A program made the position numbers and the translations under genes. Below, one piece after another: positions 3,582-50,400 of a DNA stretch of 64,000 nucleotides. The stretch comes from Patescibacteria group bacterium. GTDB lineage: Bacteria > Patescibacteriota > Patescibacteriia > CAIXNZ01. Position 1 is the stretch's first letter. Each line of letters begins with the position of its first letter. The stretch is taken from positions 91,932 through 155,931 of the forward strand of contig JBAZJU010000001.1 in NCBI GenBank assembly GCA_041651155.1, given 5' to 3'. The notes under the pieces are model-generated. The model made no database searches. It worked only from the letters and a program-made list of their open reading frames with translations, and had not been told where the DNA came from.

Positions 3582-6500
3582 ATGTATAAGCTCAAAGGAA
3601 ATATAAGCAAATTTTTAATAAGCAGTTTGCTTCTGGGAATAGCCTTAAGTCCGCCAGGGGTTTTGGCAGCCACAACTATTGGAGCTGATATTACTACAGG
3701 TGGCAATTTACAAGTAGATGGAGGGTTGCAGTTTACAAGCGGCGCGGCGAACAATTATATCCTAAGTTCAGATGCGACGGGAAACGCCACCTGGATTTCA
3801 GTTGATACTTCATTGGGTACTTCAAATACAGACAGTTTGCCCCAAGGCGCAACTAACCTTTATTACTCTGATGCTGCTGTAGATGCGCGGATCACTTTGC
3901 AAAAAGGAGCCTTAAACGGCTTGGCAGAACTTGATGCCGGCGGCAAGGTGCCTTCGGGGCAATTACCAGCTATTGTAATTACTAATGTTTATGTGGTGGC
4001 TGACATAACTGCCAGAGACGCTTTAGTTGTTCAGACAGGAGATGTGGCAGTTGTTTTAGATGCTGGAGGAGGCGCAGGTGATTCAAGAACTTATATTTAT
4101 GATGGTACTGTTTGGCAGGAATTATTAGACCCGACAAATATATATCTTAGCAAAGCAAATAATCTATCAGATTTGACCAATGTTGCCTTAGCGCAAACTA
4201 ATTTGGGTTTGGGTACAACTGATACGCCGACATTTTCCGGCTTGATTCTTTCTAATTATCTTGATTTTACGCCAGGAGCGCCTCCTGTTTATAGCGAAGG
4301 TAGAGTCTTTTATGACAGTACAGATAAAGCTTTAACTTATTATAACGAAGCCTCAGCTGTGTCAGTTAGCCTTGGCCAAGAGGCCATGACCAGGGTTTAT
4401 AACCAGACGGGCAGCCAAATAAATAATGGCCAGGCGGTTTACATTAACGGAGCAAATGGAGACGTGCCGACCGTTGCTCTGGCCAAAGCGGATAGCATTA
4501 TTACTTCCAATGTCGTTGGTATCACAACCATGAATATCCCTGATGGCAGTTATGGCTATATTACTTTTTTTGGCTTAATACATGGCTTAAATACTGCAAT
4601 ATATTCCAGCGGAGATGAACTTTTTCTCTCAGATACCGTAGCCGGCGGATTTACGGCCACACGTCCCAACCAACCGAATATTAGCGTTCCTCTTGGCTTC
4701 ATTGTTAAACCAGGCGCGGGAAATGGCATAGTTTTAGCAGAAATTAGTGCATATAAACACGGAGCGCTTGAAGTAGGTACGGTCGCTTTTGGCGCAGCAA
4801 ACGGCTTAATAATGGGTGATCCAAATAATTTATTCTGGGATAATGCCACCAAGCGTCTGGGTATTGGCACTAATATCCCTAATTATACTTTAGACGTAGC
4901 CGGTGATATTAAAGCTGGTGATGGTTCTCTGGTTTTACTTGGCTCTCAAACAAATCCTGATCCAGCTGGAATTAACGGCGCCATGTATTATAATACCTCA
5001 ACTGACAAATTCCGCTGTTTTGAAAATAGCGTTTGGAAAGATTGCGCTGATCCCAGCACTATGCATACGCTTCAGTCTGTCTATGACAATGGCGCAACCA
5101 TTACAACAGCCGGGGCTGTAGATATTGGCTTCACATTATCATCAGGTAATTTCACTGTTTCAGGCGCAGGCTCGGTTGACTTAACGCCGACAGCGGCTTC
5201 CAGTTTTACTTCTGGAGATGCTCTAACACTAACAGCTGGCGCTGCCTCTACCTGGGGAACATCTACTGGGAATTTAAACCTGCAGGTAGCCGGTGCTGGT
5301 GCGACAGCTAATGTGCAAATAGGCGCGGGAGTTGCTTCAGCTACGCCTGATTTGCTTGTTTTAGATCTTGGTAGCGCTGAACCAGCTGGCAGCGCAGGCA
5401 GCATTTATTATAACTCCGGTACAAATAAATTTCGTTGTTATGAAAATGGGGTCTGGGTTAATTGTATTTCAGCTTCAGGCAGCGCAGTCCTTTCCGGCAT
5501 TACTGCCGCAACAGCAGGAAATAGCATAAATAATGGCGATAATGCCCAGGTATGGAATTGGTCATTGACCTCTTTGAATAAGATTGGGTTAAAAATCAGT
5601 GAAAATAGTGCTTCAACCGCAACTGGTACTCCTGCACTGATGGAAGCAAAAACCTTAGCCACTTCTACGGCTACACCCTTGCGCGTAATTAACCAAGGAA
5701 CAGGGCCAAGTTTTATTGTTGAAAATGCAGACAGTGATGCTACTCCTACTTTATATATTGAACCTGCCGGTGCATTACCTATCGTTCACACAGGCCATGT
5801 GGCTATTGGCAGTAATTTTTTTGATCCAACTGCCCCTGAAAAATTAAAAGTAGATTCTGGAACTGAAGATTCTTTTAATATCATCAGCGCTGCCGGTGAT
5901 CTAAATAATTATTTGCAGATTAATGTTACAAATAGGAATGCTGGTAACGATGCTTCTTCTGATTTGGTTGCTACGGCAGATAATGGCGATGAAAGTAATT
6001 ATTATGTGGATTTAGGTATTAATTCATCTGGCTATAGTAATCCTGCTTATTCAATTGGCGGTCCAGATGACTCTTATCTTTTAGCTCAAGGCGGGTTGGG
6101 AGCTGGCGGGAACTTGTCAGTTGGGACAGCTACAACTGGCACAGTTATAAAATTCCATACAGGCGGTTCAACAGCGGCTGATGAAAAGATGAGGATTGAG
6201 GATAGCGGAAATGTGGGTATCGGCACGACTTCGTTAAATGCAAGATTAGATCTGTCGCCTGCTACAGCTGATGCTTTAAGAATTGAGCCGTATGGCGCAG
6301 TTGCCGGTAATACTGGCAATTTGGAATTAATGGAACTGGCAGCTAATGGTTCTAATTATGTGGGCTTTAAAGCGCCTGACAGTATTGCCGCAAATGTGGC
6401 CTGGACATTGCCAAACGCTGATGGCACACCGAGCCAGGTTTTATCAACCGATGGGTTGGGGACATTGTCATGGTCCAGCGGCGCAACCAATTATTGGCAA

Positions 6501-9500
6501 AGAGTAGGGACTACTTTATCGCCCGCAACTGCCGGTGATGATGTTACGACTACTGGAAATATTTCCACTACCGGTGTTGGAACAATTACTTCAGCTGGTC
6601 TATTAACCGGCAGTTTAGGCTCAACCATATCTGGCGCAGCAATTAGTTTAAATGATAATAGCAATTTTAATACCACTATAAATACAGGCACTTCAACCGG
6701 AACAGTAACAATAGGCAGCGCCAATGCCGGAGCAATTCAAATAATCAGCGGTGCAGGTTTAACTTTAACCGGAGGAGCTGCTTCAAATATTAACACTACA
6801 GCAAGCGATCTTAGCTTTCAGCCGGCTGGGATAGGCACAACAGCCAATGTGCAAATCGGTGTTGGTCAGCCAGGTTCGACTACTCCGGATCTTTTGGGGT
6901 TAGATGTCAAAAGTACGGCAGGAGATCCTGCTTCTGGCGCAGATGGCGCAATGTATTATAATGAAAATTCAAATAAATTCCGTTGCCATGTAAACGGAGT
7001 ATGGGCTGATTGTGATACCACCGGTGGCACGGTTACTTTACAATCCGCTTACAATAGTGGCGCTACAATTACCACTGCAGGTGCAGTTGATCTGGCCTTT
7101 ACCTTAACCTCTGGCAATTTTACTGCTGCCGGGGCTGGTTCGGTCAATTTAACGCCCACGGGTGCTTCCAGTTTTACTTCTGGCGGAGCCTTAACCTTGA
7201 CTGGCGGCGCTGCTTCAACCTGGTCAACCAGCTCTGGAGCTTTGACTTTGACTTCAGCAATAGCCGCTACTTGGGGAACCACAGCCGGAGATTTACAATT
7301 ACAAGTAGCTGGCAGCGGTACAACAGCTAATATAAAAGTCGGCGCTGGTGGCGCTGGTTCAGCAACACCTGACTTATTTGCCCTGGACGTGAAATCAAGC
7401 GCAGGTGATCCGGCTGGCTATAATGGCGCCATGTATTATAATCAATCGTCTAATGTTTTCCGTTGTTATGAAGCAGGCGGCTGGAAAGATTGCGGCGCAA
7501 CAGGAACAGGAGCCGCGACTTTGCAACAGTCATATAATGCCGGGTCAACAATTACTACGGCAGGCGCAGTTGATCTGGCTCTAACTTTAACATCAGGCAA
7601 TTTCACTGCCACGGGCGCTGGTTCAGTTAATTTAACCCCAACGGGCGCCTCAAGCTTTACTTCCGGCGGAGCCTTAACTTTGACTGGCGGCGCAGCTTCT
7701 ACCTGGGGCACCTCAGCTGGCAATTTAGCTTTGCAGGTCGCAGGAACCGGGACAACTGCCAACGTACAAATAGGCGCTGGCGGTGCTGGTTCAACTACCC
7801 CTGATCTTTTGGCAATTGATGTAAAATCAGACGCTGGTGATCCCGCAGGATTTAACGGGGCTATCTATTACAATGCCAATGGTAACCGATTTCGTTGTTA
7901 TGAAAATGGAGCCTGGAAAGATTGCGATGCAGGCGTGGTGGCTTCTTTGCAGACAGCATATAATAACGGAGGAACTATAATAACAAATGGCAGCCCAATT
8001 GCTTTTACTTTGACTTCTGGTGATTTCACTGCTACAGGCGCAGGCGCAGTAAATTTAACTCCGACCAGCGCTTCCAGTTTTACTTCAGGAGGCGCTTTAG
8101 CATTGACCGGTGGCGCTGCCTCAACCTGGGGTACAAGCGCGGGAAATTTATCTTTGCAGTCAGCTGGCACTGGCACATCTGCTAATATTCAGATCGGCGC
8201 AGGCGGAGCAGGTTCAACTACGCCTGACAGCTTGGTGCTAGATATTAAGTCAGATGCCGGCGACCCGGCAGGCACAAACGGAGCCATGTATTATAATGCT
8301 AATACAAATAAATTTAGATGTTATGTAAATGGCGCTTGGCTTGACTGCGATATGAGATCAATCGGCACTGCCAAAGGAGACTTAATAGCTTATACGGCAA
8401 GCAATACTCCTGTTAGATTGCCAGTCGGCGGAACAAATGGTTTTATGTTAATGGTTGATTCAACCCAGGCAACAGGTATGAGATGGGGCGCTAATTTACC
8501 GACAGCTAATTCCATTGATTTTACTGAATTGAAAGACGCTATGACTGTTGATGCCAATACTTCAATAAATTTAGCCGGCAAAAATTTAACAATAAACGAT
8601 CTTACTGGCGGCGGCGCATTAAGCATGTCCACTAATGCTGCTGCTTTGACTTTAACTGCCGGTGCGGCTTCAACCTGGTCAACCACAGCCGGCGCATTAA
8701 CAATAAATTCAGGGACAACAACTCCTGCTGCTTTGAATTTAGGCAGTGCGGGAACAAATGCAGTAGCAATAGGCAATGCGGGCAGTACTTTTGCCCTGAC
8801 TTCCAGCGGCGGTTTAAATGTCTCAACTGGCGGCGCTTTAACAGGGGTGGCTTCACTTGATACGATTAGTACTTCAGCTACAGCATTAACTTTTGCAGGC
8901 GCTGGTTCTGTTTCACCAGGTGGCGCAAACAATTTAACGCTGGGTTCTACCAATACCACCTCAACTACAAACATCCAATCAGGAACAGGCAATATAAATT
9001 TAATGCCCGCAACTGCCGGCACAACCGCCAATGTACAAATTGGCGGGGGCGGGGCAGGTTCCGCCACCCCAGATCTTTTAGCTCTGGATGTAAAATCTAC
9101 CGCAGGTGACCCGGCCGGATTTAATGGAGCCATGTATTACAATGCCAGCGCAAACAAATTTAAATGTTATGAAAATAGCGCCTGGAAAGACTGTGATACT
9201 GCTGGGACGCAAACATTGCAAGCGGCCTATAATGGTGGTGCCACGATTACCACTTCAGGCGGCAGTGCTATTACCTTTACTACGCCAATAGGCTCAAATA
9301 ATGCAGGCTTAGTTATAAATCAAAATAATTCAACTAATAATCCTGTTGCCTTACAGATAACTAATGCCGGCACGGGCAATGATATTACCGCGACTAATTG
9401 GTCTGTGACTAAAGCAGGTAATCTTTCTACCAGCGGGAATATTACTACAACCGGTTCTGGCATAATTACTTCAGCGTCAACCTTGACTGCGTCAAATGGC

Positions 9501-10733
9501 TTTACCATGACAACAGGAGCCTTAGGTTTGACAGCGACATCTGGTTCAATCGGGTTGAGCGGTCTTACTACCACTTCAATTGTAAATACGGGCGCATTGA
9601 CTTTAACCGGCGGAGCCGCTTCAACTTTATCAACAACGGCAGGCAATTTAACCCTGCAGGCGGGTTCAGGCACAGTCAGTTTAGGAACTTCTACAAATTT
9701 AACAGCTGGAGGAGCGCTGACCATTGATTCAAATACCACTAGCGCACTTAATCTGGGGACTGGCGCAAATGCCAAGACAATCACGATGGGCAATAATACA
9801 GGCGCGACAAGTTTAGCTCTCAAGGCTGGAACAGGCAGCATATTAATGTCTGGACAGGCAACAGGCACATCCGCAACATTCATGGGCGTGCCGGTTAAAA
9901 CAGACGCTGGTGATCCTACGACAACTCAAATAAACGGCGCAATGTATTATAATTCAAATTCCAACAAATTCCGCTGTTTTGAAAACAGCGTCTGGAAAGA
10001 TTGCGATACGTCAGGAACGACGACTTTACAGCAAGCGTATAACGCGGGCGCAACTATTACTACCGCAGGCGCAACTGATTTGGCTTTAACCCTGGCCTCT
10101 GGCAATTTTACGGCAAGTGGAGCCGGATCTGTTAATTTAACGCCGACAGGTGCCTCAAGCTTTACTTCAGGCGGCGCTTTAACACTGACTGGCGGAGCTG
10201 CTTCTACCTGGTCAACTAGCGCTGGCAATTTAACTTTGCAAGCAGGTTCTGGCACTGTGAGTTTAGGAACTTCTACAAATTTAACAGCTGGAGGAGCACT
10301 GACTATTGATTCAAACACGACTAGCGCTCTCAATTTCGGCACGGGCGCTAATGCCAAGACAATCACTATCGGTAATTCAACTACTACAACAGCTTTAATA
10401 TTAGATGCAGGCACGGGTGGTGTTAAAATTGGCGATAGTACTGCCACGGCAATAACTAATCATTATTCAGCAACAGCTGCCTTAGATTTTGGTTCAATTG
10501 ATGGAGTTTGCACTTCACTAACGATTACAGTGACGGGCGCAGCAGCCGGAGATACAGCGATTGCAACTCCGACACCTGTTGCAGGCGGGATTGAAACTGG
10601 CACTGATTCAGTTTGGAATACCTATGTTTCAGCGGCTAATACTGTTACTGTTCGAGCCTGTGACACAAATCCCGCAGGTGGCGGCTTTAATGCTGCTTCT
10701 CAAACTTGGCGCGTAGATGTCTGGAAACATTAA
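3582..10733 (+). CDS. Giant secreted repetitive surface protein (2383 aa) with a signal peptide, a tail-fibre-like N-terminal region and eight ~150-aa Cys-pair repeats
   Basis: A single uninterrupted ORF with an N-terminal hydrophobic signal and G/T/A/S-rich composition. It has the LSKANNLSDLTNVALAQTNLGLG motif typical of phage tail-fibre proteins. The motif PDLL.LDVKS.AGDPAG.NGAMYYN...NKFRCYENG.WKDCD recurs eight times. Confidence 0.8.
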   Translation: MYKLKGNISKFLISSLLLGIALSPPGVLAATTIGADITTGGNLQVDGGLQFTSGAANNYILSSDATGNATWISVDTSLGTSNTDSLPQGATNLYYSDAAVDARITLQKGALNGLAELDAGGKVPSGQLPAIVITNVYVVADITARDALVVQTGDVAVVLDAGGGAGDSRTYIYDGTVWQELLDPTNIYLSKANNLSDLTNVALAQTNLGLGTTDTPTFSGLILSNYLDFTPGAPPVYSEGRVFYDSTDKALTYYNEASAVSVSLGQEAMTRVYNQTGSQINNGQAVYINGANGDVPTVALAKADSIITSNVVGITTMNIPDGSYGYITFFGLIHGLNTAIYSSGDELFLSDTVAGGFTATRPNQPNISVPLGFIVKPGAGNGIVLAEISAYKHGALEVGTVAFGAANGLIMGDPNNLFWDNATKRLGIGTNIPNYTLDVAGDIKAGDGSLVLLGSQTNPDPAGINGAMYYNTSTDKFRCFENSVWKDCADPSTMHTLQSVYDNGATITTAGAVDIGFTLSSGNFTVSGAGSVDLTPTAASSFTSGDALTLTAGAASTWGTSTGNLNLQVAGAGATANVQIGAGVASATPDLLVLDLGSAEPAGSAGSIYYNSGTNKFRCYENGVWVNCISASGSAVLSGITAATAGNSINNGDNAQVWNWSLTSLNKIGLKISENSASTATGTPALMEAKTLATSTATPLRVINQGTGPSFIVENADSDATPTLYIEPAGALPIVHTGHVAIGSNFFDPTAPEKLKVDSGTEDSFNIISAAGDLNNYLQINVTNRNAGNDASSDLVATADNGDESNYYVDLGINSSGYSNPAYSIGGPDDSYLLAQGGLGAGGNLSVGTATTGTVIKFHTGGSTAADEKMRIEDSGNVGIGTTSLNARLDLSPATADALRIEPYGAVAGNTGNLELMELAANGSNYVGFKAPDSIAANVAWTLPNADGTPSQVLSTDGLGTLSWSSGATNYWQRVGTTLSPATAGDDVTTTGNISTTGVGTITSAGLLTGSLGSTISGAAISLNDNSNFNTTINTGTSTGTVTIGSANAGAIQIISGAGLTLTGGAASNINTTASDLSFQPAGIGTTANVQIGVGQPGSTTPDLLGLDVKSTAGDPASGADGAMYYNENSNKFRCHVNGVWADCDTTGGTVTLQSAYNSGATITTAGAVDLAFTLTSGNFTAAGAGSVNLTPTGASSFTSGGALTLTGGAASTWSTSSGALTLTSAIAATWGTTAGDLQLQVAGSGTTANIKVGAGGAGSATPDLFALDVKSSAGDPAGYNGAMYYNQSSNVFRCYEAGGWKDCGATGTGAATLQQSYNAGSTITTAGAVDLALTLTSGNFTATGAGSVNLTPTGASSFTSGGALTLTGGAASTWGTSAGNLALQVAGTGTTANVQIGAGGAGSTTPDLLAIDVKSDAGDPAGFNGAIYYNANGNRFRCYENGAWKDCDAGVVASLQTAYNNGGTIITNGSPIAFTLTSGDFTATGAGAVNLTPTSASSFTSGGALALTGGAASTWGTSAGNLSLQSAGTGTSANIQIGAGGAGSTTPDSLVLDIKSDAGDPAGTNGAMYYNANTNKFRCYVNGAWLDCDMRSIGTAKGDLIAYTASNTPVRLPVGGTNGFMLMVDSTQATGMRWGANLPTANSIDFTELKDAMTVDANTSINLAGKNLTINDLTGGGALSMSTNAAALTLTAGAASTWSTTAGALTINSGTTTPAALNLGSAGTNAVAIGNAGSTFALTSSGGLNVSTGGALTGVASLDTISTSATALTFAGAGSVSPGGANNLTLGSTNTTSTTNIQSGTGNINLMPATAGTTANVQIGGGGAGSATPDLLALDVKSTAGDPAGFNGAMYYNASANKFKCYENSAWKDCDTAGTQTLQAAYNGGATITTSGGSAITFTTPIGSNNAGLVINQNNSTNNPVALQITNAGTGNDITATNWSVTKAGNLSTSGNITTTGSGIITSASTLTASNGFTMTTGALGLTATSGSIGLSGLTTTSIVNTGALTLTGGAASTLSTTAGNLTLQAGSGTVSLGTSTNLTAGGALTIDSNTTSALNLGTGANAKTITMGNNTGATSLALKAGTGSILMSGQATGTSATFMGVPVKTDAGDPTTTQINGAMYYNSNSNKFRCFENSVWKDCDTSGTTTLQQAYNAGATITTAGATDLALTLASGNFTASGAGSVNLTPTGASSFTSGGALTLTGGAASTWSTSAGNLTLQAGSGTVSLGTSTNLTAGGALTIDSNTTSALNFGTGANAKTITIGNSTTTTALILDAGTGGVKIGDSTATAITNHYSATAALDFGSIDGVCTSLTITVTGAAAGDTAIATPTPVAGGIETGTDSVWNTYVSAANTVTVRACDTNPAGGGFNAASQTWRVDVWKH
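4975..10025 (+). repeat. Intragenic tandem repeats, eight units of about 430-480 nt, each encoding the MYYN..FRCYENG.WKDC motif; a near-identical ~200-nt sub-duplication lies at 9590-9790 and 10170-10370
   Basis: The motif occurrences start near nt 4984, 5404, 6950, 7430, 7863, 8287, 9130 and 9945. The last two sub-blocks are about 90% identical at the DNA level. Confidence 0.75.
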
Positions 10734-15239: not shown

Positions 15240-17591
15240 ATGTCTGAATTGATTTTGAAATTCTCCCAAGTATCCATAAAAGATGTTGGCAAAGTAGGTG
15301 GCAAAAATGCCAGCTTGGGTGAAATGTTTAGGAATTTAATTAAAAAAGGGATTAGTATTCCTGATGGTTTTTGTACTACTGCCAAGGCATGGCAGTATTT
15401 TTTGGAGTATAATTCTTTAAAAAAGCCTATTAAGGAATCTTTGCTAAAGTTAGATAAGAATAATCTGGAAAGTTTGGAATTAACTGGCGCTAAGATCAGA
15501 AATTTAATCATGCGCGGCAGTATTCCGCCAGATTTGGCTGCTGAAATTATTGCAAGTTATAAATTACTTTCCAAGAAATACATGGTTTTAAATGTTGACG
15601 TGGCAGTGCGTTCAAGCGCCACTGCTGAAGATTTGCCAGGCGCTTCTTTTGCCGGCCAGCAGGAATCATATTTAAATATCAAAGGCGAGAAGGAACTACT
15701 TTTAGCCATTAAAAGATGTTTTGCCTCATTGTATACAAATCGCGCAATTTCATATCGCGAAGACCAGGGTTTTAATCATTTGAAAGTTTATTTATCTGTT
15801 GGCGTCCAAAAAATGATCCGTTCTGATTTGGCTTCAGCTGGCGTGATGTTTACGATTGATACAGAATCTGGCTTTAAAGATTTAATAATTATTAATTCTT
15901 CATATGGTTTGGGAGAAAATGTTGTGAAAGGCAGAGTCACGCCTGATGAATTTTTTATCTGGAAATCAAATTTGAAAATTATTAAAAAAGAGCTCGGCAG
16001 TAAAAAAAGAAAATTAATTTACACTAATAATTTAAAAAATCCAACAAAAAATATTTTGGCTGCGCCAAATGAGCGCCAGCAGTTTTCTTTAAAAAATTCT
16101 GAGATTTTGCAGCTGGCAAAATGGGCGCAGATTATTGAGCGCTATTACAAACGTCCCATGGATATTGAGTGGGCCAAAGACGGCCAGGCAAATAAATTGT
16201 ACATTGTCCAAGCACGGCCTGAGACAGTTGAGTCTTTGGTTAATCCCAATATTTTAGAACAATATATTTTGCCCAAAAGAGGGAAAGCAATTTTAAGTGG
16301 GGAAGCCATAGGTCAGAAAATTGCCACTGGCAAAGTTAAAATTATTAAAAATGTTAAACAATTAGGTGCTTTTAACCCGGGCGAGATATTGGTGACTGAA
16401 ATGACTGATCCTGATTGGGAGCCGGTTATGAAAAAAGCCGCTGGCATTATTACTAATTCAGGCGGGAGAACCTGCCATGCGGCCATTGTTTCGCGCGAAT
16501 TGGGCGTGCCGGCAATTGTGGGCAGTAAAATTGCCACCAAAATTTTAAAAGACGGGCAGAAAATTACTTTAAGCTGCGCTGAAGGTGAAAATGGTCGTGT
16601 TTACGATGGATTTTTACCATTTAAAATCAAAAAGACTGATTTGCGCAAGGTAAAAAAGCCTAAGGTAGATATTATGATGAATCTTGGCGACCCAACCCAG
16701 GCTTTTAAATATTCTTTTTTGCCCAATGAGGGTATTGGTTTGGCGCGTTTGGAGTTTATAATAACCAACTATATTAAAATCCATCCCTTAGCGCTCACGA
16801 ATTATCACAAATTGCCGGCTAATTTAAAAAAGCAGATTAATGACTTAACTTCTGCCTATAAAAACAAAACTGATTTTTATGTAGAGCAATTAGCGTTTGG
16901 TATTGCCCAGATTGGAGCTGCTTTTTATCCCAAAGATGTGATTGTGCGCTTTTCTGATTTTAAAACAAATGAATATGCCAATTTAATCGGCGGGGAATTA
17001 TATGAGCCAAAAGAAGCAAATCCAATGATTGGCTGGCGTGGCGCCTCAAGATATTATGATCCGAAATTCAAACCCGCTTTTGATTTGGAATGCCAGGCCA
17101 TAAAAAAGGTCAGAAATGAAATGGGTTTAACCAATATCAAGGTGATGGTGCCGTTTTGCCGCACCTTAGAAGAAGCTAGAAAAGTTATCCAAATATTAAG
17201 GCAAAACGGCCTCAGGCAAGGCCAAAATGGTTTACAGGTTTATGTCATGGTTGAGATTCCCAGCAATGTAATTTTGGCAGATGAATTTGCTAAAATTTTT
17301 GATGGGTTTTCAATTGGTTCCAATGACTTAACTCAATTAACTTTAGGTTTAGACCGGGACTCGGAATTAATTTTACAAATCGGTGATGAAAGAAACGAGG
17401 CAGTAAAAAAACTGGTCATTCAGGCAATTAAATCAGCTAAAAGGGCTAAGATAAAAATCGGCATTTGCGGCCAAGCACCGTCTGATTTCCCTGATTTTGC
17501 CCGCTTTTTAATGGAAGAAGGAATTGATAGCATTTCTTTAACTCCAGATACGGTAATAAAAACACGCCTTGATTTAAGCAAAAAGAGGTGA
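15240..17591 (+). CDS. ppsA: phosphoenolpyruvate synthase (pyruvate, water dikinase)
   Basis: An N-terminal VGGKNASLGEM ATP-grasp motif and the PEP-utilising mobile-domain motif GGRTCHAAIVSRELGVPAIVG. The C-terminal PEP/pyruvate domain is present. Length 783 aa. Confidence 0.85.
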   Translation: MSELILKFSQVSIKDVGKVGGKNASLGEMFRNLIKKGISIPDGFCTTAKAWQYFLEYNSLKKPIKESLLKLDKNNLESLELTGAKIRNLIMRGSIPPDLAAEIIASYKLLSKKYMVLNVDVAVRSSATAEDLPGASFAGQQESYLNIKGEKELLLAIKRCFASLYTNRAISYREDQGFNHLKVYLSVGVQKMIRSDLASAGVMFTIDTESGFKDLIIINSSYGLGENVVKGRVTPDEFFIWKSNLKIIKKELGSKKRKLIYTNNLKNPTKNILAAPNERQQFSLKNSEILQLAKWAQIIERYYKRPMDIEWAKDGQANKLYIVQARPETVESLVNPNILEQYILPKRGKAILSGEAIGQKIATGKVKIIKNVKQLGAFNPGEILVTEMTDPDWEPVMKKAAGIITNSGGRTCHAAIVSRELGVPAIVGSKIATKILKDGQKITLSCAEGENGRVYDGFLPFKIKKTDLRKVKKPKVDIMMNLGDPTQAFKYSFLPNEGIGLARLEFIITNYIKIHPLALTNYHKLPANLKKQINDLTSAYKNKTDFYVEQLAFGIAQIGAAFYPKDVIVRFSDFKTNEYANLIGGELYEPKEANPMIGWRGASRYYDPKFKPAFDLECQAIKKVRNEMGLTNIKVMVPFCRTLEEARKVIQILRQNGLRQGQNGLQVYVMVEIPSNVILADEFAKIFDGFSIGSNDLTQLTLGLDRDSELILQIGDERNEAVKKLVIQAIKSAKRAKIKIGICGQAPSDFPDFARFLMEEGIDSISLTPDTVIKTRLDLSKKR

Positions 17592-17617
17592 TAAGATGGG
17601 TTTAAAGCGTAAATTAC

Positions 17618-17646
17618 TTGACAAGTAATTAAAAATGTGCTATAGT
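17618..17646 (+). promoter_or_regulatory. Consensus-like sigma70 promoter TTGACA-N17-TATAGT
   Basis: ttgaca at 17618-17623, a 17-nt spacer, and tatagt at 17641-17646. An AGGAGG RBS lies 7 nt before the GTG at 17677. Confidence 0.6.
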
Positions 17647-17676
17647 TAAGGAACTAAAATAATACAGGAGGTTTTC

Positions 17677-17922
17677 GTGAAAAGAATGGAATCAGAGATC
17701 CTTGGGGCTATTTCCTTTTGCATCGTCATCTTCTTCTTTTTCTGGGTTTGCGCTGCTGCGGCCGACCCACTCCAGGTGTCGTTGCTGGCCAAAGTGCCAA
17801 GCTTCTACGCCTTCGGCATCCTTTTTCTGGGCTTGTGGTTGGCAATACTTTCCAGCCACGGCAACGAACAGACACTTCGGAAAATGAAGAAAGGCCATAA
17901 GGCCTACGTAGACAAGTATTGA
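17677..17922 (+). CDS. GC-rich orphan small membrane protein (81 aa, two predicted TM helices), GTG start
   Basis: A strong RBS and a canonical promoter and terminator. Local GC is well above the genome background. ORFs open on several frames are typical of a GC-rich insert. Confidence 0.45.
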   Translation: MKRMESEILGAISFCIVIFFFFWVCAAAADPLQVSLLAKVPSFYAFGILFLGLWLAILSSHGNEQTLRKMKKGHKAYVDKY

Positions 17923-17950
17923 GGTACGATCAGTGCCTCAATCTTGCAGC

Positions 17951-17979
17951 GAGGTTCCATCAAGGAACCTCTTTTTTTT
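17951..17979 (+). terminator. Rho-independent terminator (gaggttcc-atca-aggaacctc plus T8)
   Basis: An 8-9-bp stem followed by a run of 8 T. Confidence 0.7.
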
Positions 17980-18054
17980 ATGCTCAAAATTCGCTATAAT
18001 TTAATAATAAGAGCAAGAAGAGCTAGATGAGCAATAGGTGAAATAAGTGAAAAA

Positions 18055-19716
18055 ATGAATATAAAATTTATTTTTATGAGTCTTAAAGAGCTTGTCAAAA
18101 GCATAACAAAAAAAGAATGGCGGTTTGTCATTCTTTTGAGTATTGTAATGATTTTGATTTTCGGCCTGCCTTGTATTTATGCTTATTTAAATGCGCCAGT
18201 AGGCTATTTTTATAATGGTTTGCATACTTTAACCCCAGGCGATTATCCTGTTTATTTTTCCTATATTAATCAAATTAAAGCAGGCCATTGGGAATTAAGG
18301 GATTATTTCACTTCTGAAGCCCAGCCGCTTGGGCTTTTAAATTTTTTTTGGCTGGCAATTGGTCTGATGGCCAGGCTTTTTTCTTTGCCGGCTGATATTG
18401 CCTTTCATCTGGCTAGATTTTTATTGATTCCTCTTTTTTTTATAATTTTTTACATTTTTACTTCATATTTTTTTACTTCAAAAAATCAAAGAAAATTAGC
18501 AGTACTTTTTATTGCATTCTCTTCAGGCATCGGCACATTTTTTGCCAGCTATTTTCTTAAATATCCTTTTAGCTTAGATGATGCTACCTATAAATGGCCG
18601 CTTGATTTTTGGATTCCTGAGCTTAATGTTTTTTCAATTTTAAGCCATTCGCCTCACATAATTTTCTCCTTTATTTTAATGGTGGCTTTTATTTTATTAA
18701 TGCTTTTGGCCTGGGATAATCATAATTATTGGTATAGTATGGCTGCTGGCATAGTCGGCTTTGTCTGGTTTAATTTCCATCCTTTTTTCTTTCCTTATGT
18801 GGTTTTTATTTTATTGCCATATCTAATCTATCTCATTGTTAAAACTAAAAAAATAAAATTGGCTGGGCATTATGTTTTAGCCATGATTTTAAGCTCACCT
18901 TTTGTTTTCTACCACTACTATAAAATTAAAACTGACCTGGTTATTGGCGCCAGAGCCAGCCAAAACATTTTATTAACCCCGCCTTTTCTTTTTGTATTTT
19001 TGGGTTTTGGCTTTTTATTGATTTTTTCTGTTATCGCCATAGTTTATTTAGCTCAGAAAAAGTTATTATTTAAAAATAGTAAGCATGTTTTTTTAGTCAT
19101 TTGGCTAATAGCTAGCTTGTTTTTGATTTATGCGCCTATTTTTTTCCAGAGGAGATTTTTAATGGGCATGCAAATTCCCATGGTATTTTTGATTGTTATT
19201 CTTTTGGCAGATTGGGTAAAATCACATCCAAACTCCAAAATATTGGCCAATAAATTTTTGTTTATCGTATTGTTTGTTATCTTTTTTTGTTTTTCATCGT
19301 TTTTTAATCTGGTCAGAGATGTCTACTATTTTCATACCCATTTTTACCATTTTTACTTGCCGCAGGAATTTAAAACCGGGCTTAATTGGTTAAATGATAA
19401 TAATCAAGCCAATAAAGCAATTTTAAGCTATGAATTAACAGGGGAATTTATTCCTGGTTATATCAATCAGCCTGCTTATCTGGCTCATGGAATTGAAACT
19501 ATAAATTATCAAGACAAAAGAAACGAGGTTTATAAATTTTTTGCTGATCAATTTAGCGAAGATCAGGCCAGAGAATTTTTAAAAACCAATCAAATTGGCT
19601 ATGTGTTTTTTACTGATTTAGAAAGAACTTACGGTCAAATTAAGCCGGCTGGCAAAGATTATTTGCAGTTGGTTTATTCAGCCGGACAGGTAGAGATTTA
19701 CGCGGTTAAAAATTAA
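18055..19716 (+). CDS. Polytopic membrane protein, possibly a GT-C-fold membrane glycosyltransferase
   Basis: About 12 TM helices followed by a C-terminal soluble domain. No decisive motif. Confidence 0.3.
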   Translation: MNIKFIFMSLKELVKSITKKEWRFVILLSIVMILIFGLPCIYAYLNAPVGYFYNGLHTLTPGDYPVYFSYINQIKAGHWELRDYFTSEAQPLGLLNFFWLAIGLMARLFSLPADIAFHLARFLLIPLFFIIFYIFTSYFFTSKNQRKLAVLFIAFSSGIGTFFASYFLKYPFSLDDATYKWPLDFWIPELNVFSILSHSPHIIFSFILMVAFILLMLLAWDNHNYWYSMAAGIVGFVWFNFHPFFFPYVVFILLPYLIYLIVKTKKIKLAGHYVLAMILSSPFVFYHYYKIKTDLVIGARASQNILLTPPFLFVFLGFGFLLIFSVIAIVYLAQKKLLFKNSKHVFLVIWLIASLFLIYAPIFFQRRFLMGMQIPMVFLIVILLADWVKSHPNSKILANKFLFIVLFVIFFCFSSFFNLVRDVYYFHTHFYHFYLPQEFKTGLNWLNDNNQANKAILSYELTGEFIPGYINQPAYLAHGIETINYQDKRNEVYKFFADQFSEDQAREFLKTNQIGYVFFTDLERTYGQIKPAGKDYLQLVYSAGQVEIYAVKN

Positions 19717-19725
19717 ATTTATCAT

Positions 19726-20607
19726 ATGATCCAATTTTTGCATAATTTTTTACCTCAGCCGATTTTACTTCACCTTGCCTTTTTACAAATCCATTGGTAT
19801 GGTTTTTTAATCGCCTTGGGCGCCTTGGCTGGTTTTGGCGCAGTTTATTCGTTGGCCAGGCAATATGGGATAAAAAAAGATGATATTTATAATTTAACTT
19901 TTTATTTAGTCATCTTTGGCTTAATTGGCGACCGTTTGTACTATGTTTTTTACGCCTGGCCTTATTATTCCCAGCATTTATTGGATATTTTTAAAATTTG
20001 GGAAGGAGGTTTGGCCATTCATGGCGCCATGATTGCTGGCGTTTTAGTGATATATATTTATGGACAGAGGCACAAAATTAATTTTTGGCTTTTACTTGAT
20101 ATATTTATTATTGCCTTGCCGTTAGCTATGGCTTTTGGCCGCTGGGGCAATTATTTTAACCAAGAACTTTTCGGGCGGCCGACGTCCTTGCCTTGGGGTA
20201 TCCCAATTAGTCCTGAAAAACGGCCGCCCGAGTTTGTGAATTTTAATTATTTTCACCCTACATTTTTATATGAGAGCTTATGGAATATGCTCATCTTTGC
20301 TTTTTTATACGCCTGGCATAAATTGCGCTTGGCTCGTCTTGGCACGGCTTCGCACGATGCAAGCCGAAGCCAGGTTAAATACAAAAATAACCTTGAACAA
20401 ATTCAAGGTTTGGGAAACATAGCTTTAGTATATTTTATTTTATATTCAGTCGGACGATTTTTAAATGAATATCTGCGGCTTGATTACAGCCCTTATTTTT
20501 TGGGAGTGCGCTGGGCGCAGGTCTTTAGTTTATTAATAATCCTCAGCTGCCTGGCCGTCATTATTTTAAAAAAAATTCACTCCAAAAAATCAGAGCTTGA
20601 AACTTAG
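19726..20607 (+). CDS. lgt: prolipoprotein diacylglyceryl transferase
   Basis: WYGFLIALGALAG, the Lgt signature FGRWGNYFNQELFGRPTSLPWGI, and HPTFLYESLWN. Confidence 0.9.
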   Translation: MIQFLHNFLPQPILLHLAFLQIHWYGFLIALGALAGFGAVYSLARQYGIKKDDIYNLTFYLVIFGLIGDRLYYVFYAWPYYSQHLLDIFKIWEGGLAIHGAMIAGVLVIYIYGQRHKINFWLLLDIFIIALPLAMAFGRWGNYFNQELFGRPTSLPWGIPISPEKRPPEFVNFNYFHPTFLYESLWNMLIFAFLYAWHKLRLARLGTASHDASRSQVKYKNNLEQIQGLGNIALVYFILYSVGRFLNEYLRLDYSPYFLGVRWAQVFSLLIILSCLAVIILKKIHSKKSELET

Positions 20608-28345: not shown

Positions 28346-28690
28346 TTATTTTACCGCTTCTACTATTTTAGCAAAAACTTGAGGATTATTGACTGCCAGG
28401 TCAGCCAGGACTTTACGGTCCAGTTCAATTTTTTTCTTATTTAAGAGATCTATAAATTTAGAATAGTTTAAGCCATGTTCGCGCACAGCTGCATTAATCC
28501 TGATTTGCCAAAGCTGGCGGAAATCTCTTTTTTTATCTTTGCGTCCGACATAAGCATGCACTCCAGCCTTAAGCATAGCTGTTTTGCCTAAGCGAATAGT
28601 CTTTTTGCGGCCCCATTTATAACCTTTGGTGGCTCGGCGGATGGTATGTCTTTTCTTTAAGTGGATTTTAGCTCGTTTAACTCTGGACAT
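28346..28690 (-). CDS. rplT: 50S ribosomal protein L20
   Basis: [15 protein letters not shown]...GYKWGRKK...[11 protein letters not shown]: a full-length L20. Confidence 0.95.
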
Positions 28691-28807
28691 GTTTTTTCTA
28701 ATTATTTGTTAATGCTTACATCTACAGATTACTGATAATTACAGATATACAGATGATATTTTATGACAATTCGTAAATCTGTATAAATCCGTAATCAGTA
28801 GAAAATT

Positions 28808-29005
28808 TTAATTGTATGGCATTAAGGATTTAAGCTGTCTGGAAATGGTTTTGTCAGCTTGTTGCGTTCTTCTTTTGGCTCTGGTGATATTGCTGGATTC
28901 GCGGGCATTAAAATGATCCTGGCCAGCTTTCTTTTTCATGAGCTTGCCTTTGTTCGTTACTCTGTATCGTTTAGCGATTGATTGATGAGTTTTAATTTTT
29001 GGCAT
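28808..29005 (-). CDS. rpmI: 50S ribosomal protein L35
   Basis: MPKIKTHQSIAKRYRVTNKGKLMKKKAG. Confidence 0.9.
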   Translation of the reverse strand: MPKIKTHQSIAKRYRVTNKGKLMKKKAGQDHFNARESSNITRAKRRTQQADKTISRQLKSLMPYN

Positions 29006-29032
29006 AGGTGAATTCCTAATTATGAATTATGT

Positions 29033-29060
29033 CCGCCAGCGGCGGATCCGCCTTTGGCGG
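29033..29060 (-). promoter_or_regulatory. Twin GC hairpins immediately upstream of the rpmI RBS; candidate L20 operator or attenuator
   Basis: On the - strand, ttccgccaaaggcgg-a-tccgccgctggcgga sits about 20 nt before the AGGA RBS. Confidence 0.3.
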
Positions 29061-29163
29061 AAGATATGAGCTGAATATAAGGAAATCTTTAAAAAAATAA
29101 AAATAGCTCTTCTTGGCTAATTTGAAATTAGTTTAGCTTAATTTTAAATTTTCGTCAAGCCGT

Positions 29164-29724
29164 TTAACTCTTTTTGGCAATAATAGCTGAAAAATTGGCA
29201 CCTTGTCTTTTAATTTCCTGTTCTGTTCTTATTTCTACTATTTGGTTAATTGAACTCACAAAATTTTCAATTAATTCTTTGGCTAATTCCGGATGAGCTT
29301 TCTCCCTGCCTTTTAAGATGACCAAAATGCTAATTTTATCGCCGCGGTTTAAAAATTTTTCAGCCTGATTAATTCTGACATCAAGGTCATGCTTGCCAAT
29401 GCGCGGTGAAAGGCGAATTTCTTTGAGCTCAACTTCTTTTTGCTGGGCTTTTTGCTTGCGGCTGGCTTTTTCCTGCTGGTACTTAAAACTGCTGTAATTG
29501 ATAAATTTAGTCACTGGCGGTTCAGCTTTGGGAGAAACAGCCACTAAATCTAATTCTCGCTCCTTAGCCATGGCAATCGCTTGCGCAGTCGGCATGACGC
29601 CAAGCATCTGGCCTTTTTCATCAATAACGCGGACAGAAAGAGAGCGGATTCGTTCATTAACCGGATATGTGTCTGGGATTTGTTGTCTTTGCGCTTGTCT
29701 ATGGCGGAAATGAATGCGTTTCAA
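29164..29724 (-). CDS. infC: translation initiation factor IF-3
   Basis: NERIRSLSVRVIDEKGQMLGVM...ERELDLVAVSP..PPVTKF and C-terminal IF3 domains. Confidence 0.9.
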   Translation of the reverse strand: MKRIHFRHRQAQRQQIPDTYPVNERIRSLSVRVIDEKGQMLGVMPTAQAIAMAKERELDLVAVSPKAEPPVTKFINYSSFKYQQEKASRKQKAQQKEVELKEIRLSPRIGKHDLDVRINQAEKFLNRGDKISILVILKGREKAHPELAKELIENFVSSINQIVEIRTEQEIKRQGANFSAIIAKKS

Positions 29725-29985: not shown

Positions 29986-30160
29986 TGTTTCGTTTTTATT
30001 TTAAAAATTTTATTAAATAGCTCGTCATTTTAGTGGCGTGCCATTCGAAGCGCAGTAAAAAGATTTTAACTTGCCCTTCTTCGCTTATTCTTTGTTATTC
30101 TCTTAGCTAAAATCTTAAAGTTAATAAAGCTACGAAGGGCATTCTTCGCTGCGCGAAGAA

Positions 30161-30549
30161 TGGAGATGGCGGGAATTGAACCCGCGTCTAGAAAGCCTTT
30201 TAAAATACTTCTACAAGCTTATTTTAGATTAAAATTACGCCTTAAGATAATAATCTAAACAAAAATCTTAGGGCCTGCCTTAAATTTTTAGCTTAATAAC
30301 TTAAGGCTAAATTATTGAGCGAGCCTGAATTTATGGCACCCAATACCTTTTATCAGGCATCAAAGGCGTGGATGGTTGCTGTTTTAGTTAAACTGCAACT
30401 GACGCAAGGTTAAAAGCAAAAGCTGCTTTAACATTGCTTAATAAGTTTTTTGCACTTATTAGATTTCTATTTTTAGTTTTACGAGATTAAATAGCATGCT
30501 CGGCTTGCGATATTTTTAAAAGATCTTCCTATCGAGGCCTGTCATCCCC
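30161..30549 (-). ncRNA. ssrA: tmRNA (SsrA)
   Basis: On the - strand the 5' end is GGGGAUGACAGGCCUCGAU. The 3' end GCGGGUUCAAUUCCCGCCAUCUCCA gives the T-arm and an acceptor pairing with the 5' GGGGAUG. A 9-bp terminator hairpin (30141-30160) follows. smpB is the next gene upstream, with a TTACAAT-repeat promoter region at 30550-30630. Confidence 0.8.
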
Positions 30550-30630: not shown

Positions 30631-31083
30631 TTATCTGAATCTAGTTTTTAGGGCTCTTTGAACGCTTCGTTTTTCTTCTCTTTCTTTAATTGATCTGCGT
30701 TTATCAAAGAGTTTTTTTCCTTTGGCTAAGGCTAGCTCTAATTTGATTTTCTTATGCTTAGTATACAATGAAAGCGGGATTAAGGTCAAGCCTATTTGCT
30801 GTAATCTTACAGTTAAAAAGTGAATTTCTTTTTTATTTAGTAATAATTTCCTTGAGCGCGTAGGATCATAGTTTGGTAATGGTCCTGCCATTTTATAGGC
30901 TGGCACATTGGCATTGATTAAATATAGTTCGTTTTGATGCAGAGTCACATAAGCGCCTTGTAAGCTGGCATGGCCAGCTCTGATTGATTTTACTTCTTGC
31001 CCTGTTAAAACTAAGCCAGCCTCGAAAGTATCCAGGATTTGGAAATCAAATTTAGCTCGTTTGTTAAGGGTTAAGACTGTCAT
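30631..31083 (-). CDS. smpB: SsrA-binding protein
   Basis: KFDFQILDTFEAGLVLTGQEVKSIRAG...LLLNKKEI: a full-length SmpB. Confidence 0.9.
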   Translation of the reverse strand: MTVLTLNKRAKFDFQILDTFEAGLVLTGQEVKSIRAGHASLQGAYVTLHQNELYLINANVPAYKMAGPLPNYDPTRSRKLLLNKKEIHFLTVRLQQIGLTLIPLSLYTKHKKIKLELALAKGKKLFDKRRSIKEREEKRSVQRALKTRFR

Positions 31084-46492: not shown

Positions 46493-46667
46493 AATGACAA
46501 AGCATCAATAACAAAATAAATTCAAATAATTAAATTTAAATAACAAAACTTGAATAACAAAAAAATAATCAATGACAAAATCTAGATAACCAAAAAATAA
46601 GAAATAAATAAAAATTTCCGCCTCTGGCGGAAAATAATAAAACAAAAATAAAAATTAAAGTAAAAAT

Positions 46668-47009
46668 ATGGATTTTGATTTGGAGGATAGGACATTAAAA
46701 TTTGCGAAAAATTGCCTTGATTTGTGCAAGCAATTGCAGAAGGATGTTATAAGTTTGGAGTTGGTTAAGCAATTTGTGAGAGCGTGCTGTTCAGTCGGGG
46801 CAAATTATAGAGAAGCAAATGACACAATAACTAAAAAGGATTTTTTACATAAAATTGCGATTTGTCGTAGGGAGTCTAAAGAAAGTAAGTATTGGTTGGA
46901 ATTGTTGCTGCACACTAACCCCAATTTTAAACTGCAAATTGAACCTCTGATTGACGAATCCCACCAACTAGCCCGCATCTTTGCCAGCATCGGCGCGAAA
47001 AAGAAGTAG
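46668..47009 (+). CDS. four-helix-bundle protein (TIGR02436)
   Basis: A paralog of the 2957 and 11629 genes. It is flanked by A/C-rich repeats upstream and their inverted T/G-rich copies at 47010-47140. Confidence 0.75.
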   Translation: MDFDLEDRTLKFAKNCLDLCKQLQKDVISLELVKQFVRACCSVGANYREANDTITKKDFLHKIAICRRESKESKYWLELLLHTNPNFKLQIEPLIDESHQLARIFASIGAKKK

Positions 47010-47118
47010 TTTAGTTATTTGATATTAAGTATTAGTTATTTAAATTTTGAGTTTATTTTGGTTATTAAGTATTAGGTATTTGGTATTCTTTTGGTATTTT
47101 ATATTGGTCATTTGGTAT

Positions 47119-47458
47119 TTGATAAAATTTACAATTTAATTAATAATAGCTGGTAAATCGCCAAGGGGATTATGCAGGGTTTCCTTGGCGGTTTATCCGC
47201 TCGTTCTCTGCTTAATTGCAGAGGACACAGCTTTGGATTTTAAAGATCCGAAGCAAGCTAATTAATGCTCTTTGTTTGAAAGCTAGGTTAAAGTATGAAG
47301 ATTAAGGCCTGGATTTCAAAGGGTAAAGGTCGATTTCTGGTTTAACCAGAAGACCTTTTTGGGAACAGGATTACTTTCAAGCCTCTAAGAGGCAAGAAAG
47401 AAACTTAACTTCCTACTCTGGCGATCGGGCAAGGAGTTTAAGAAAGGACAAGTTTAAT
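47119..47458 (+). promoter_or_regulatory. Candidate promoter (TTGATA-N17-AATAAT) plus ~300-nt GC-enriched structured 5' leader of the S-layer-like gene; contains an ECF-like GGAAC-N17-TCTAA motif at 47362-47388
   Basis: Multiple short hairpins (cgccaagg/ccttggcg, ctctgc/gcagag, gcctc/gaggc). No ORF. Long leaders are typical of S-layer genes. Confidence 0.35.
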
Positions 47459-50400
47459 ATGATTAAGAAAATTTTTACTGTTGGCGTGGTAGTATTGACC
47501 ATTTTTTGGGCTGTCGGTCTAGCAGCATTTGTTCCAACCGCTCAGGCTACAACTTTTAGCTCTGGCGATTTGATCAAAGCTTCTTTACCAGCAGTTTATT
47601 ACTACGGTGCTGACGGCAAAAGGTATGTGTTCCCAAACGAACCAACATACAAAACCTGGTATGCTGACTTCTCCAGCGTGAAAACTATCACTGACGGAGA
47701 ATTAGCCACCATTCAAATCGGCGGCAATGTCACTAACAAACCAGGCGTTAAAATGGTGAAAATCACCACTGATCCAAAAGTATACGCTGTGGCTGCAAAT
47801 GGCACATTGAGGTGGGTAACCACTGAATCACTTGCTGCTTCTTTATACGGTTCTAACTGGGGAGCAATGATTCTTGATGTGTCTGATGCTTTCTTTGTTA
47901 ATTACTCTATTGGCGCTCAAATCAGCAATGTTTCTGATTATTCTCCATCTGCTGCAACTGCTGCTGCTCAATCAATCAATGTTGATAAGGGCTTAGCAGG
48001 CGCAACAACAACTGGCGGTAATTTAAATGTTTCTTTAGCATCTGATACACCAGCTGCTTCTACAGTTGCTGGCGGTGCTGCTGCTAATATGTCAAAGATC
48101 ATTTTAGCTACTGGTTCCGCAGCTGTTAAAGTTAAATCTTTATACATCACTCGTTCAGGCTTAAGCGCAAACGATGATGTTGAAAATGTTAAATTAATCA
48201 ATGTTGCTGGCGCTACTGTTGGCGATGTTGGTTCATTTGGTTCAAACAGCAAAGCATTAATTTCTTTTGTTCCATCATTAGAAATTGCTGCTAATACTTC
48301 AGTCTCATATTATGTCCGTGCTAGTATCAGATTAGGCGCTCCTGCTGGCAACACGGTTGCTTTGGGCGTTGCATTAAATACTGATGTAGTATTGGAAGCA
48401 GGTACTGTTAGCGGTGCATTCCCAGTCGTTGGCAACTACATGTCAATTGTAGCTTTAGCTAACATTGGCAGTGCTACTGTTGGCCAAGATGCAGCAGTTG
48501 TCGATACTATGCCAGATGCTGGCGCAAAAAGAGTTCAGGTCTCTGAATTTTACGTCATGGCTGGTGCAAATGAAGATTTGACTATTGAAGCTATGAGTTT
48601 AATTGAAGCTGGTTCAGCAAATACTGCTGATTCAGCTAATATTGAATTATACAGTTTGACAGAAGGTAGAACATTGGGCACTGCTGCTTCATGGGATGCA
48701 AATTCTCGTGTTACTGTTGGTAGCATGAATGTTGTTATTCCAAGAGGTGGTAAACACATTTTCCAGGTTTATGCTGATATCGTAAGCGGTTCAGGCAACG
48801 TTATTGATGTTGATTTAACTGATGGTACTGATGTTTTAGTAACTGTTAAGGGTAATACCTATGGTTTTTATCTTTCTCCAATAGTTGCTGTGACTCCTCC
48901 ATTAAACTGGGATGGTCAAGGTATTCCAGGAGTAGGTGGTCAAACCGTAGGCGCTGGTTTATTAAATGTTACTAAATCAACTTCTTCTCCAGCTACTGGT
49001 AATATTGCTCGCGCTTCTGATCAGGCAATTGCAACTTATGATTATGAAGTACGAGGTGAATCTATTAAGATTACTTCAACTATGGTTACAATTACAGAAG
49101 GTGCTGCATTTAATAATGTTGTTCCAAACTGGAATAGAGTTGCTAATGTGAAATTAGTTGATGAAAACGGTTTAGTTGTTGCGGGCCCAAAGAATTTAAC
49201 AAATGTATCTGTCGGCGCTGCCGGTGGTGTTACAACTGTTACTTTCAATGAAACTTATGTTGTACCAACTGGTACTCATAAATACACTGTTAAAGTTGAT
49301 GTTTTGAGCAATGCTCCAGCTGGCGCAACAGCTACTTTGGTAGCTAGTTTAACTCCAAGCGCTGATATTACAGCAACTGGGGTTACAACTCGTGAAAGTG
49401 TAGTTCCAACGCCTGCTGTTGCTGTCGCTGGCAATGGTGAGACTATCTTGGGTGTAGCATTAACTGTTACCAATTTAACTCAACCAGCTGCTAGATCAAT
49501 TGCTGTTGGTACTCAGAATTTTGTCTGGGCAACTACTTCATTAGATGCAACTGCTTCTGGTGAAGATGTTCGTGTTTCATCTGTTACAGTTTTGGATACT
49601 TTAGGTGTTGGTAATACTGATGATATGACTGCTTTGCAGAATCTTTCAATCTGGGCAGATTTAACATCAGCTAGTTCTACTCGTGGTGATGCTTATGAAA
49701 CAAAGGTTTCTAATAATGAGCAGCCAACACTTGCTACTACTAAAGCAATTAACTTAACACAAGTTATCACTGTTCCAAAAGGAACTTATGTTAAGATTGC
49801 TGTTGTTGGTAATTTATCAACCTTAGCATTTGTTACAGATACTCACCAGATTAGTATTGCTGCGCCTATAACAGCAACTGGTAAATCAACAGGCAATGCT
49901 CCTGTTATCCCAGCTATTATTACTTTGGGACAGGTAATGCTTGTATCTGCTTCTGGTACTTTAACTGCGTCATTAGATGCTTCTACTCCATTAGCTAATA
50001 TTGTAGTTAGTGGTGCACAAAAGGTTACTGTTGCTGCTTTCAAATTAACAGCTGATAATATTGAAGCTATTGAACTTGATGATCTTTTGGTTAATGATGT
50101 TGCGGCAATTGCTACAAATCCAGTTGCATCAAATTGGTACTTGTATGCAAATAGTCGCGCTGATGGCGGTTCAATTGCTGATCCGGTTGCTGTAGCTGCT
50201 GGCGGTTTTGCGCCACAATTCATTTTAGCTGATAATACAATTGTTGTTCCATCTAATAGCAGTGTTGTCTTGACTCTTAAAGCAGACATCGCCCCTGTTG
50301 ATGGCGCTACTGTAATTAATGGTGATGATTTAATCCCAGAAATTACTGCAGCTGCAAGCATAAATGCTACAGGCGTGTCTTCTGGTGTCCCAGCCACCAT

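Follow-up and report, generated by a model that had tools for sequence, protein, structure and literature searches.

A GC-rich, self-contained gene in a Patescibacteria genome encodes a member of a small, lineage-specific family of predicted helical-hairpin membrane proteins

The stretch of Patescibacteria DNA analysed here (64 kb, referred to throughout as the window) carries on its plus strand, between positions 17618 and 17979, a compact block made up of a promoter, a ribosome-binding site, one small gene and a terminator. As read from the sequence, the promoter is of the sigma-70 type, with a −35 element TTGACA (17618–17623) and a −10 element TATAGT (17641–17646) separated by a 17-nt spacer; the spacer ends in TGc and thus supplies an extended −10 TG (17638–17639), which comes in addition to 11 of 12 consensus matches. 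Transcription would begin at about 17653–17655. A Shine-Dalgarno (SD) sequence, AGGAGG (17666–17671), precedes by 5 nt a GTG at 17677, the start of an 81-aa coding sequence (17677–17922) that ends in TGA at 17920–17922. An intrinsic terminator, GAGGTTCC-ATCAA-GGAACCTC then T8 (17951–17979), separates the small gene from the genes downstream; its stem-loop (17951–17971) has 8 bp, of which 5 are G-C, and the T8 tract occupies 17972–17979. A further 10-bp hairpin, AUUGAGGUAC-GAUCA-GUGCCUCAAU, spans the stop codon (17918–17942, plus strand) and is missing from L001, the corresponding locus of a Parcubacteria metagenome-assembled genome (MAG). GC content over 200 nt peaks at 0.52 at the block, against 0.29–0.44 over most of the region from 15 to 21 kb (local values reach 0.475 within the PEP synthase gene), and the coding sequence itself has a GC content of 0.50 compared with 0.36 in its flanks. 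A preliminary description of this DNA had pointed to the TTGACA-N17-TATAGT promoter, the AGGAGG, the GTG-start 81-aa ORF, the terminator and the rise in GC, each of which was found in the sequence, and to overlapping ORFs, of which six were counted (48–81 aa; three on the plus and three on the minus strand). Its further statement that these signals were stronger than anywhere else in the window was overstated: a promoter scan of the 64 kb returned four additional sites with 11 of 12 matches, three of them with the TG, so this genome has consensus sigma-70 promoters of its own. That the block is one self-contained transcription unit forms part of an overall explanation which, taken as a whole, we consider likely. 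We also noted a 15-nt direct repeat, CTTTTTCTGGG(T/C)TTG, within the small gene (17736–17750 and 17821–17835), whose copies fall in different reading frames (FFWV and LFLGL) and whose presence is probably due to chance.

The genes around the block form a conserved neighbourhood that was recovered in ten distinct loci, in the order MscS-like protein (227 aa), PEP synthase (∼783 aa), small gene, 553-aa membrane protein and Lgt, with PGI further downstream. The window shows exactly this order: a 783-aa enzyme of the PEP synthase/PPDK family lies upstream (15240–17591), and a 553-aa polytopic membrane protein (18055–19716), conserved in most relatives, and Lgt (prolipoprotein diacylglyceryl transferase; 19726–20607) lie downstream, all on the plus strand. 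L001, which was found by a scan with the 553-aa protein as query, encodes a PEP synthase 90% identical and a 553-aa protein 80% identical to those of the window, and its promoter, SD and terminator are also kept. Across the relatives, a promoter of the form TTGAC[A/T]-N17-TATA[A/G]T with the TG was present in 10 of 10 distinct loci, an SD of AGGAGG or GGGGG type occurred in every relative, and in all ten loci a GC stem leads into a T-run (T8 in most, TTTT in L004 and L009). The 553-aa protein returned no match in Pfam, NCBIfam or PDB profile searches, and its single-sequence structural model was discarded (pLDDT 49.7); a GT-C-like glycosyltransferase would be our guess. L008 and L012 lack its gene while keeping the small gene, and this weakens the case for an obligate partnership between the two.

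The relatives also showed local variations on this arrangement. In L002, L007, L008 and L010 the 5′ untranslated region of the small gene is longer, at ∼80–90 nt, and holds a recurring AGCTGAAAA(A)GG box (L002: 5880–6000; L007: 5890–6000; L008: 1330–1446; L010: 440–560); the ORF call in L010 runs into this region, giving a product of 110 aa. Several relatives carry an extra ORF of 73–79 aa with a CxxC...CxxC zinc-ribbon pattern between PEP synthase and the small gene (L002: 5574–5816; L004: 3869–4090; L008: 1041–1280; L010: 112–351; L009: 3–239), which is absent from both the window and L001.

Several lines of evidence indicate that the 81-aa ORF is a protein-coding gene. At the same spot in L001 the corresponding frame stays open as an 87-codon, TTG-start ORF, the sole long ORF of that stretch, and the peptides of the window and L001 align from end to end (44–46% identity), with indels of whole codons. 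Nucleotide differences between the two fall at codon positions 1, 2 and 3 in the proportion 36/24/47 (pN 0.35, pS 0.79); mean pairwise differences by codon position over ten distinct loci of the family were 0.55/0.39/0.66, and dN/dS was 0.31 and 0.35 in the two closer pairs, the only ones that are not saturated. An open frame in L001, substitutions concentrated at third positions and dN/dS below 1 together identify a real protein gene, on which, from this substitution pattern, purifying selection acts in a relaxed form. The GTG start appears to be right because the N-terminus that it gives (MKRMESE...) fits the MKK/MKR pattern of the family and because the SD stands at an ideal spacing of 5 nt, and on these two grounds the start codon given in the preliminary description is upheld. 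In the NCBI annotation the copy in the window starts instead at a later internal ATG, giving 78 aa, which is probably three codons too late.

In early searches for homologues a single peptide matched only itself and a two-sequence alignment only its two members, and it was the exhaustive HMM search alone that revealed the family: among 1.84 billion representatives it returned seven more proteins (81–95 aa; E = 4 × 10−9 to 1 × 10−4). A follow-up word-indexed profile search added four more, one of them from Candidatus Buchananbacteria RBG_13_39_9, and the family as established by profile search totals 13 protein clusters of 78–110 aa. The protein had been described beforehand as an orphan, a label contradicted by these 13 related clusters. 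Metagenome scans for the small protein contributed nothing beyond this, the first being empty and the second yielding only copies of known loci. By direct homology, three members correspond to existing entries annotated as “hypothetical protein”: WC460_00540 (the source genome), NTX00_02345 (a Parcubacteria MAG) and A2Y67_04440 (Candidatus Buchananbacteria RBG_13_39_9). Members share a common architecture: the N-terminus is of MKK/MKR type, the first hydrophobic helix closes with FxxFW, the loop DPxKxSLxAQVP leads to another hydrophobic helix, and the basic tail carries EQxxxKIKKG.... The motifs W23, DP, SLxAQVP and EQxxxKIKK persist at 25–45% identity. In our searches the family was found only in Patescibacteria/Parcubacteria, in Buchananbacteria and their relatives. 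The small protein had no significant match in Pfam, NCBIfam, PHROGs, PADLOC, PDB sequence profiles or a Foldseek comparison with the PDB. On the sequences recovered, this is a small, fast-evolving and lineage-specific family that was previously undescribed.

An AlphaFold2 (AF2) model built on the 13-sequence alignment (mean pLDDT 80; ∼90 in both helices) predicts that the protein is a helical hairpin in the membrane. Residues 2–29 (17680–17763) form a short charged N-terminus and helix 1 (pLDDT ∼90), with a hydrophobic core at approximately residues 9–29 that includes the conserved F19 and W23. The inter-helix loop DPLQVSLLAKVP (residues 30–41; 17764–17799), which includes one short turn in the model, carries DPxKxSLxAQVP, the best conserved of the family motifs. 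Residues 42–60 (17800–17856) form helix 2, the second transmembrane (TM) segment, and residues 61–81 (17857–17919) form a basic tail, EQxxxK(I/M)KKG(HKAYV), that is predicted to be disordered and whose fuller consensus reads EQxxxKIKKGHKAYVxKY; all four segments lie on the plus strand. Because the tail is strongly basic, the positive-inside rule suggests that both termini are cytoplasmic (N-in/C-in) and that the conserved loop faces outward. The earlier proposal of a gene for a small two-TM protein is thereby supported: the gene is real and monocistronic, and both helices of its product are hydrophobic. A lipoprotein, considered since the gene lies near lgt, was rejected: Cys residues occupy different alignment columns in different members, and a lipobox after a signal-peptide core is absent. 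F-type ATPase subunit c, SecG, CrgA and Pmp3/YqaE are likewise two-helix hairpins of ∼80 aa, but share no sequence, profile or significant fold match with the small protein, and to our knowledge their signature motifs are absent from it.

One alternative is a type I toxin or holin-like pore former whose structured mRNA restrains translation, and the preliminary description had likewise suggested a small toxic membrane peptide or a holin-like protein. The protein is indeed small and hydrophobic, and its two helices and highly charged C-terminus recall class II holins of the two-TM, S21 type, which are of similar size (∼70–90 aa) and likewise end in a charged tail after a pair of hydrophobic helices; unlike these, it is most conserved in the loop, not the tail. 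It shows no profile similarity to Pfam or PHROG holins (the best PHROG holin hit had E = 0.92 in 1 of 13 members, and Pfam Phage_holin_3_6 gave E = 0.13 in 1 of 9 members) and no significant PADLOC match, it has no viral relatives, and there are no endolysin or phage genes nearby. Type I toxins are under ∼60 aa, have a single TM helix and are often multicopy. Hok, Fst and TisB resemble the small protein in being small, hydrophobic and encoded by a structured monocistronic mRNA, but the members at 81–95 aa, with two helices, exceed the typical size of this class. Restraint by the mRNA would draw on two observations, namely that the message is more structured than background and that, in the window as well as in L001, the SD and the 3′ arm of the terminator are complementary. 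However, the SD is unpaired in the minimum free energy (MFE) structure of the window and in both centroid folds, pairing only in the MFE structure of L001, and is thus accessible; the sole antisense promoter-like site (18098–18070) is not conserved in L001, which leaves the small gene without a conserved antisense RNA promoter of the kind associated with type I toxins. The gene is present as a single copy in the 64-kb window, is inherited vertically and has a chromosomal synteny with housekeeping genes that is fixed across the lineage, and an unguarded toxin under a consensus promoter and a strong SD would be lethal. With neither homology, phage context nor a conserved antisense promoter behind it, a toxic or holin-like function is improbable.

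It had also been proposed that the block was acquired recently by horizontal transfer; the donor would then have been richer in GC. Two observations lend themselves to this reading. First, GC at third codon positions (GC3) is 0.65 in the small gene, far outside the distribution for the window (mean 0.346, SD 0.042, maximum 0.437 in 39 long genes). Second, when the window is set against its closest relative, L001, nucleotide identity within the block is lowest in the small gene, at 38–60% vs 80–88% in the flanks; the divergence hot spot within the syntenic block spans window positions 17689–17940. Nonetheless, the same position, promoter and terminator recur in nine other distinct loci of AT-rich relatives, and the block is thus conserved in place among AT-rich genomes with raised GC of its own. 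No flanking repeats or mobility genes were found around the small gene; blastn gave no match to plasmids, with phage matches confined to the AT-rich promoter stretch, and scans of viral contigs for the small protein returned no relatives. The small gene has diverged by ∼0.45, no more than its flanks have at synonymous sites (0.48–0.62), so weak constraint on helix residues suffices to account for it, and replacement of the allele, which we considered as a cause of the dip in identity, is unneeded at a divergence no higher than the neutral level of the flanks. In the pairs L004–L009 and L002–L010 the flanks have diverged at least as far as the small gene, indicating that the rate of the small gene is uneven among lineages.

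The base composition of the gene points in the same direction. The C-ending share among two-fold pyrimidine codons, NNC/(NNC+NNT), was 17/23 (0.74) in the small gene compared with 358/1,692 (0.21) in flanking genes (Fisher P = 1 × 10−7), and TTA is used for 0 of 10 Leu in the copy of the window. The C-ending share exceeded that of the flanks 2- to 4-fold in 9 of 9 loci having flanking genes (P = 3 × 10−2 to 3 × 10−8); these P values are optimistic, as are those for structure given below, since family members are not independent samples. Gene GC across the family is 0.36–0.50 vs 0.29–0.42 in the flanks. Synonymous sites between family members are saturated, and amelioration should have erased a donor signature, yet GC3 and the C-ending bias are raised in all relatives; a bias common to every member despite such saturation is best explained by maintenance through selection. 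From these comparisons the rise in GC is a trait of the family, lying mostly at third positions (C-ending codons and avoidance of TTA), and not a mark of foreign origin. With the gene at the same place in nine other AT-rich loci and GC3 raised in all, a recent import is very improbable, and vertical inheritance at a fixed position is, from sequence comparison, part of the overall explanation that we judge likely as a whole. A preference for C-ending NNY codons is a classical mark of highly expressed genes, and here it fits with the consensus promoter, the SD and the terminator, suggesting that the gene is probably highly expressed. Translational selection alone may not explain a share of 0.74, however, because ribosomal protein L20 and IF3 in the window are weakly C-biased (0.31 and 0.26, respectively).

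Folding of the message was assessed at several levels. The whole transcript folds more stably than shuffled sequences (z = −3.9 in the window and −5.1 in L001), although a z of −4 is found among the lowest 3% of ordinary 330-nt windows across this genome, for which the mean z was −1.03 (SD 1.6) and among which four others equalled or beat the small-gene transcript. For the coding sequence alone, mean z was −2.2 vs dinucleotide shuffles and −2.33 vs synonymous-codon shuffles that hold protein and GC3 constant, with 8 of 10 sequences at or below −2.0; 48 control segments of other genes gave a mean z of −0.56 (SD 1.0; Mann-Whitney P = 2 × 10−4, optimistic for the reason given above). The gain in stability, genuine though modest, is not matched by a shared fold. 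RNAalifold on a 10-sequence codon alignment gave an empty consensus, and in the four closest sequences strict conservation was limited to two helices, that of the terminator and a GGCC-AYAA-GGCC mini-hairpin within the codons for GHKA; a few other predicted helices, one of them long-range, had no net covariation support (covariation term −0.06). In the window the mini-hairpin, GGCCAUAAGGCC, lies in the region coding for the tail (17893–17904, plus strand; the scan reports 17892–17905 on the minus strand). The messages thus seem to have been selected to be compact and GC3-rich without a common structure, and we infer that their stable folding reflects selection on mRNA stability or expression.

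A GC-rich island of ∼320 nt running from promoter to terminator in an AT-rich CPR genome has the classic look of a structured RNA, and the preliminary description had raised a misannotated one. RNase P RNA, 6S, SRP RNA and tmRNA in AT-rich genomes are likewise GC-rich islands of ∼320 nt with their own strong promoter and terminator, but the small gene differs from them in having neither an Rfam match nor a conserved structure and in bearing a clear coding signature. Rfam searches at the gathering score over the whole window returned only tmRNA and one tRNA, and at E ≤ 10 over 17550–18050 the best scores were 14–17 bits against cut-offs of 41–270. A manual comparison with the motifs of RNase P (CR-I and CR-IV), SRP and 6S gave resemblances, GAAGAAAGGCC and ACAGAC, that were rejected because they occur in the wrong order and form a local hairpin. 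That the block encodes a structured non-coding RNA, with its ORF a by-product of GC content, is extremely improbable: its own promoter and terminator, the raised GC with ORFs overlapping in several frames, the stable folding relative to shuffles and a GGGUUU...GACCC hairpin with two compensatory pairs between the window and L001 are what the idea can claim, against which stand the empty Rfam and consensus-structure results, the ordinary rank of the folding energy within this genome, the fact that only the coding frame is open in L001, and a codon-position pattern, dN/dS and conserved protein motifs that all indicate a protein.

Other features of the window were recorded in passing. A tmRNA gene (30158–30549, minus strand; 145 bits) adjoins smpB (30631–31083, minus strand), with L20, L35 and IF3 following shortly downstream, also on the minus strand (28346–29724). 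A 321-nt intergenic stretch at 47140–47460 (plus strand) folds exceptionally stably, with z = −9.96 (MFE −127.9 kcal/mol), into several long perfect hairpins and precedes a 1,165-aa Ala-rich repeat ORF (47459–50956); an Rfam search at E ≤ 1 found nothing in it, and it may represent a structured leader or a new non-coding RNA. Close by, a PF05635 gene (“23S rRNA-intervening sequence protein,” an Avd-like four-helix bundle; 46668–47009) is bracketed by AT-rich tandem repeats of AATAACAAAA type (46493–46612), with inverted copies at 47011–47047; the repeat arms are 37 nt long and 78% complementary. A very large ORF of 2,383 aa occupies 3582–10733 (plus strand).

Our preferred reading is of a vertically inherited protein gene, in which a self-contained unit with an extended −10 promoter, a strong SD, a GTG start and a terminator would produce a helical-hairpin protein. 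On its signals the small gene would be very highly expressed, and its GC3-rich, unusually folded mRNA may aid the efficiency of translation or the stability of the message. The protein itself might then be plentiful in the cell membrane, as an accessory or structural part that perhaps acts together with the envelope enzymes encoded nearby; this role is put forward tentatively, as a possibility against which the odds presently lie, and the link to envelope enzymes is rated low since adjacency is its one basis. More speculative, and unlikely, is a stronger form of the proposal, in which few membrane components of these ultra-small bacteria would outnumber the hairpin protein and the mRNA itself would be selected to be GC3-rich and tightly folded without a fixed structure, in a genome otherwise rich in AT; a weaker variant would give the RNA of the small gene a second, non-coding role. 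Were the stronger form true, it would imply selection for a long mRNA half-life or for avoidance of U-runs in a heavily transcribed membrane-protein message, with codon choice driven by the physical properties of the mRNA and not by tRNA pools.

On the evidence assembled here, the GC-rich island would be neither a hidden RNA gene, a toxin cassette nor foreign DNA. What the analysis defines instead is a new family of small proteins in a clade of Parcubacteria, with unusually strong expression signals and with an unusual codon bias and mRNA folding that appear to be selectively maintained, and it corrects the probable start codon in the annotation. Should the protein prove as plentiful as its expression signals imply, it would be a candidate structural or accessory component of the membrane in organisms whose envelopes are poorly understood.
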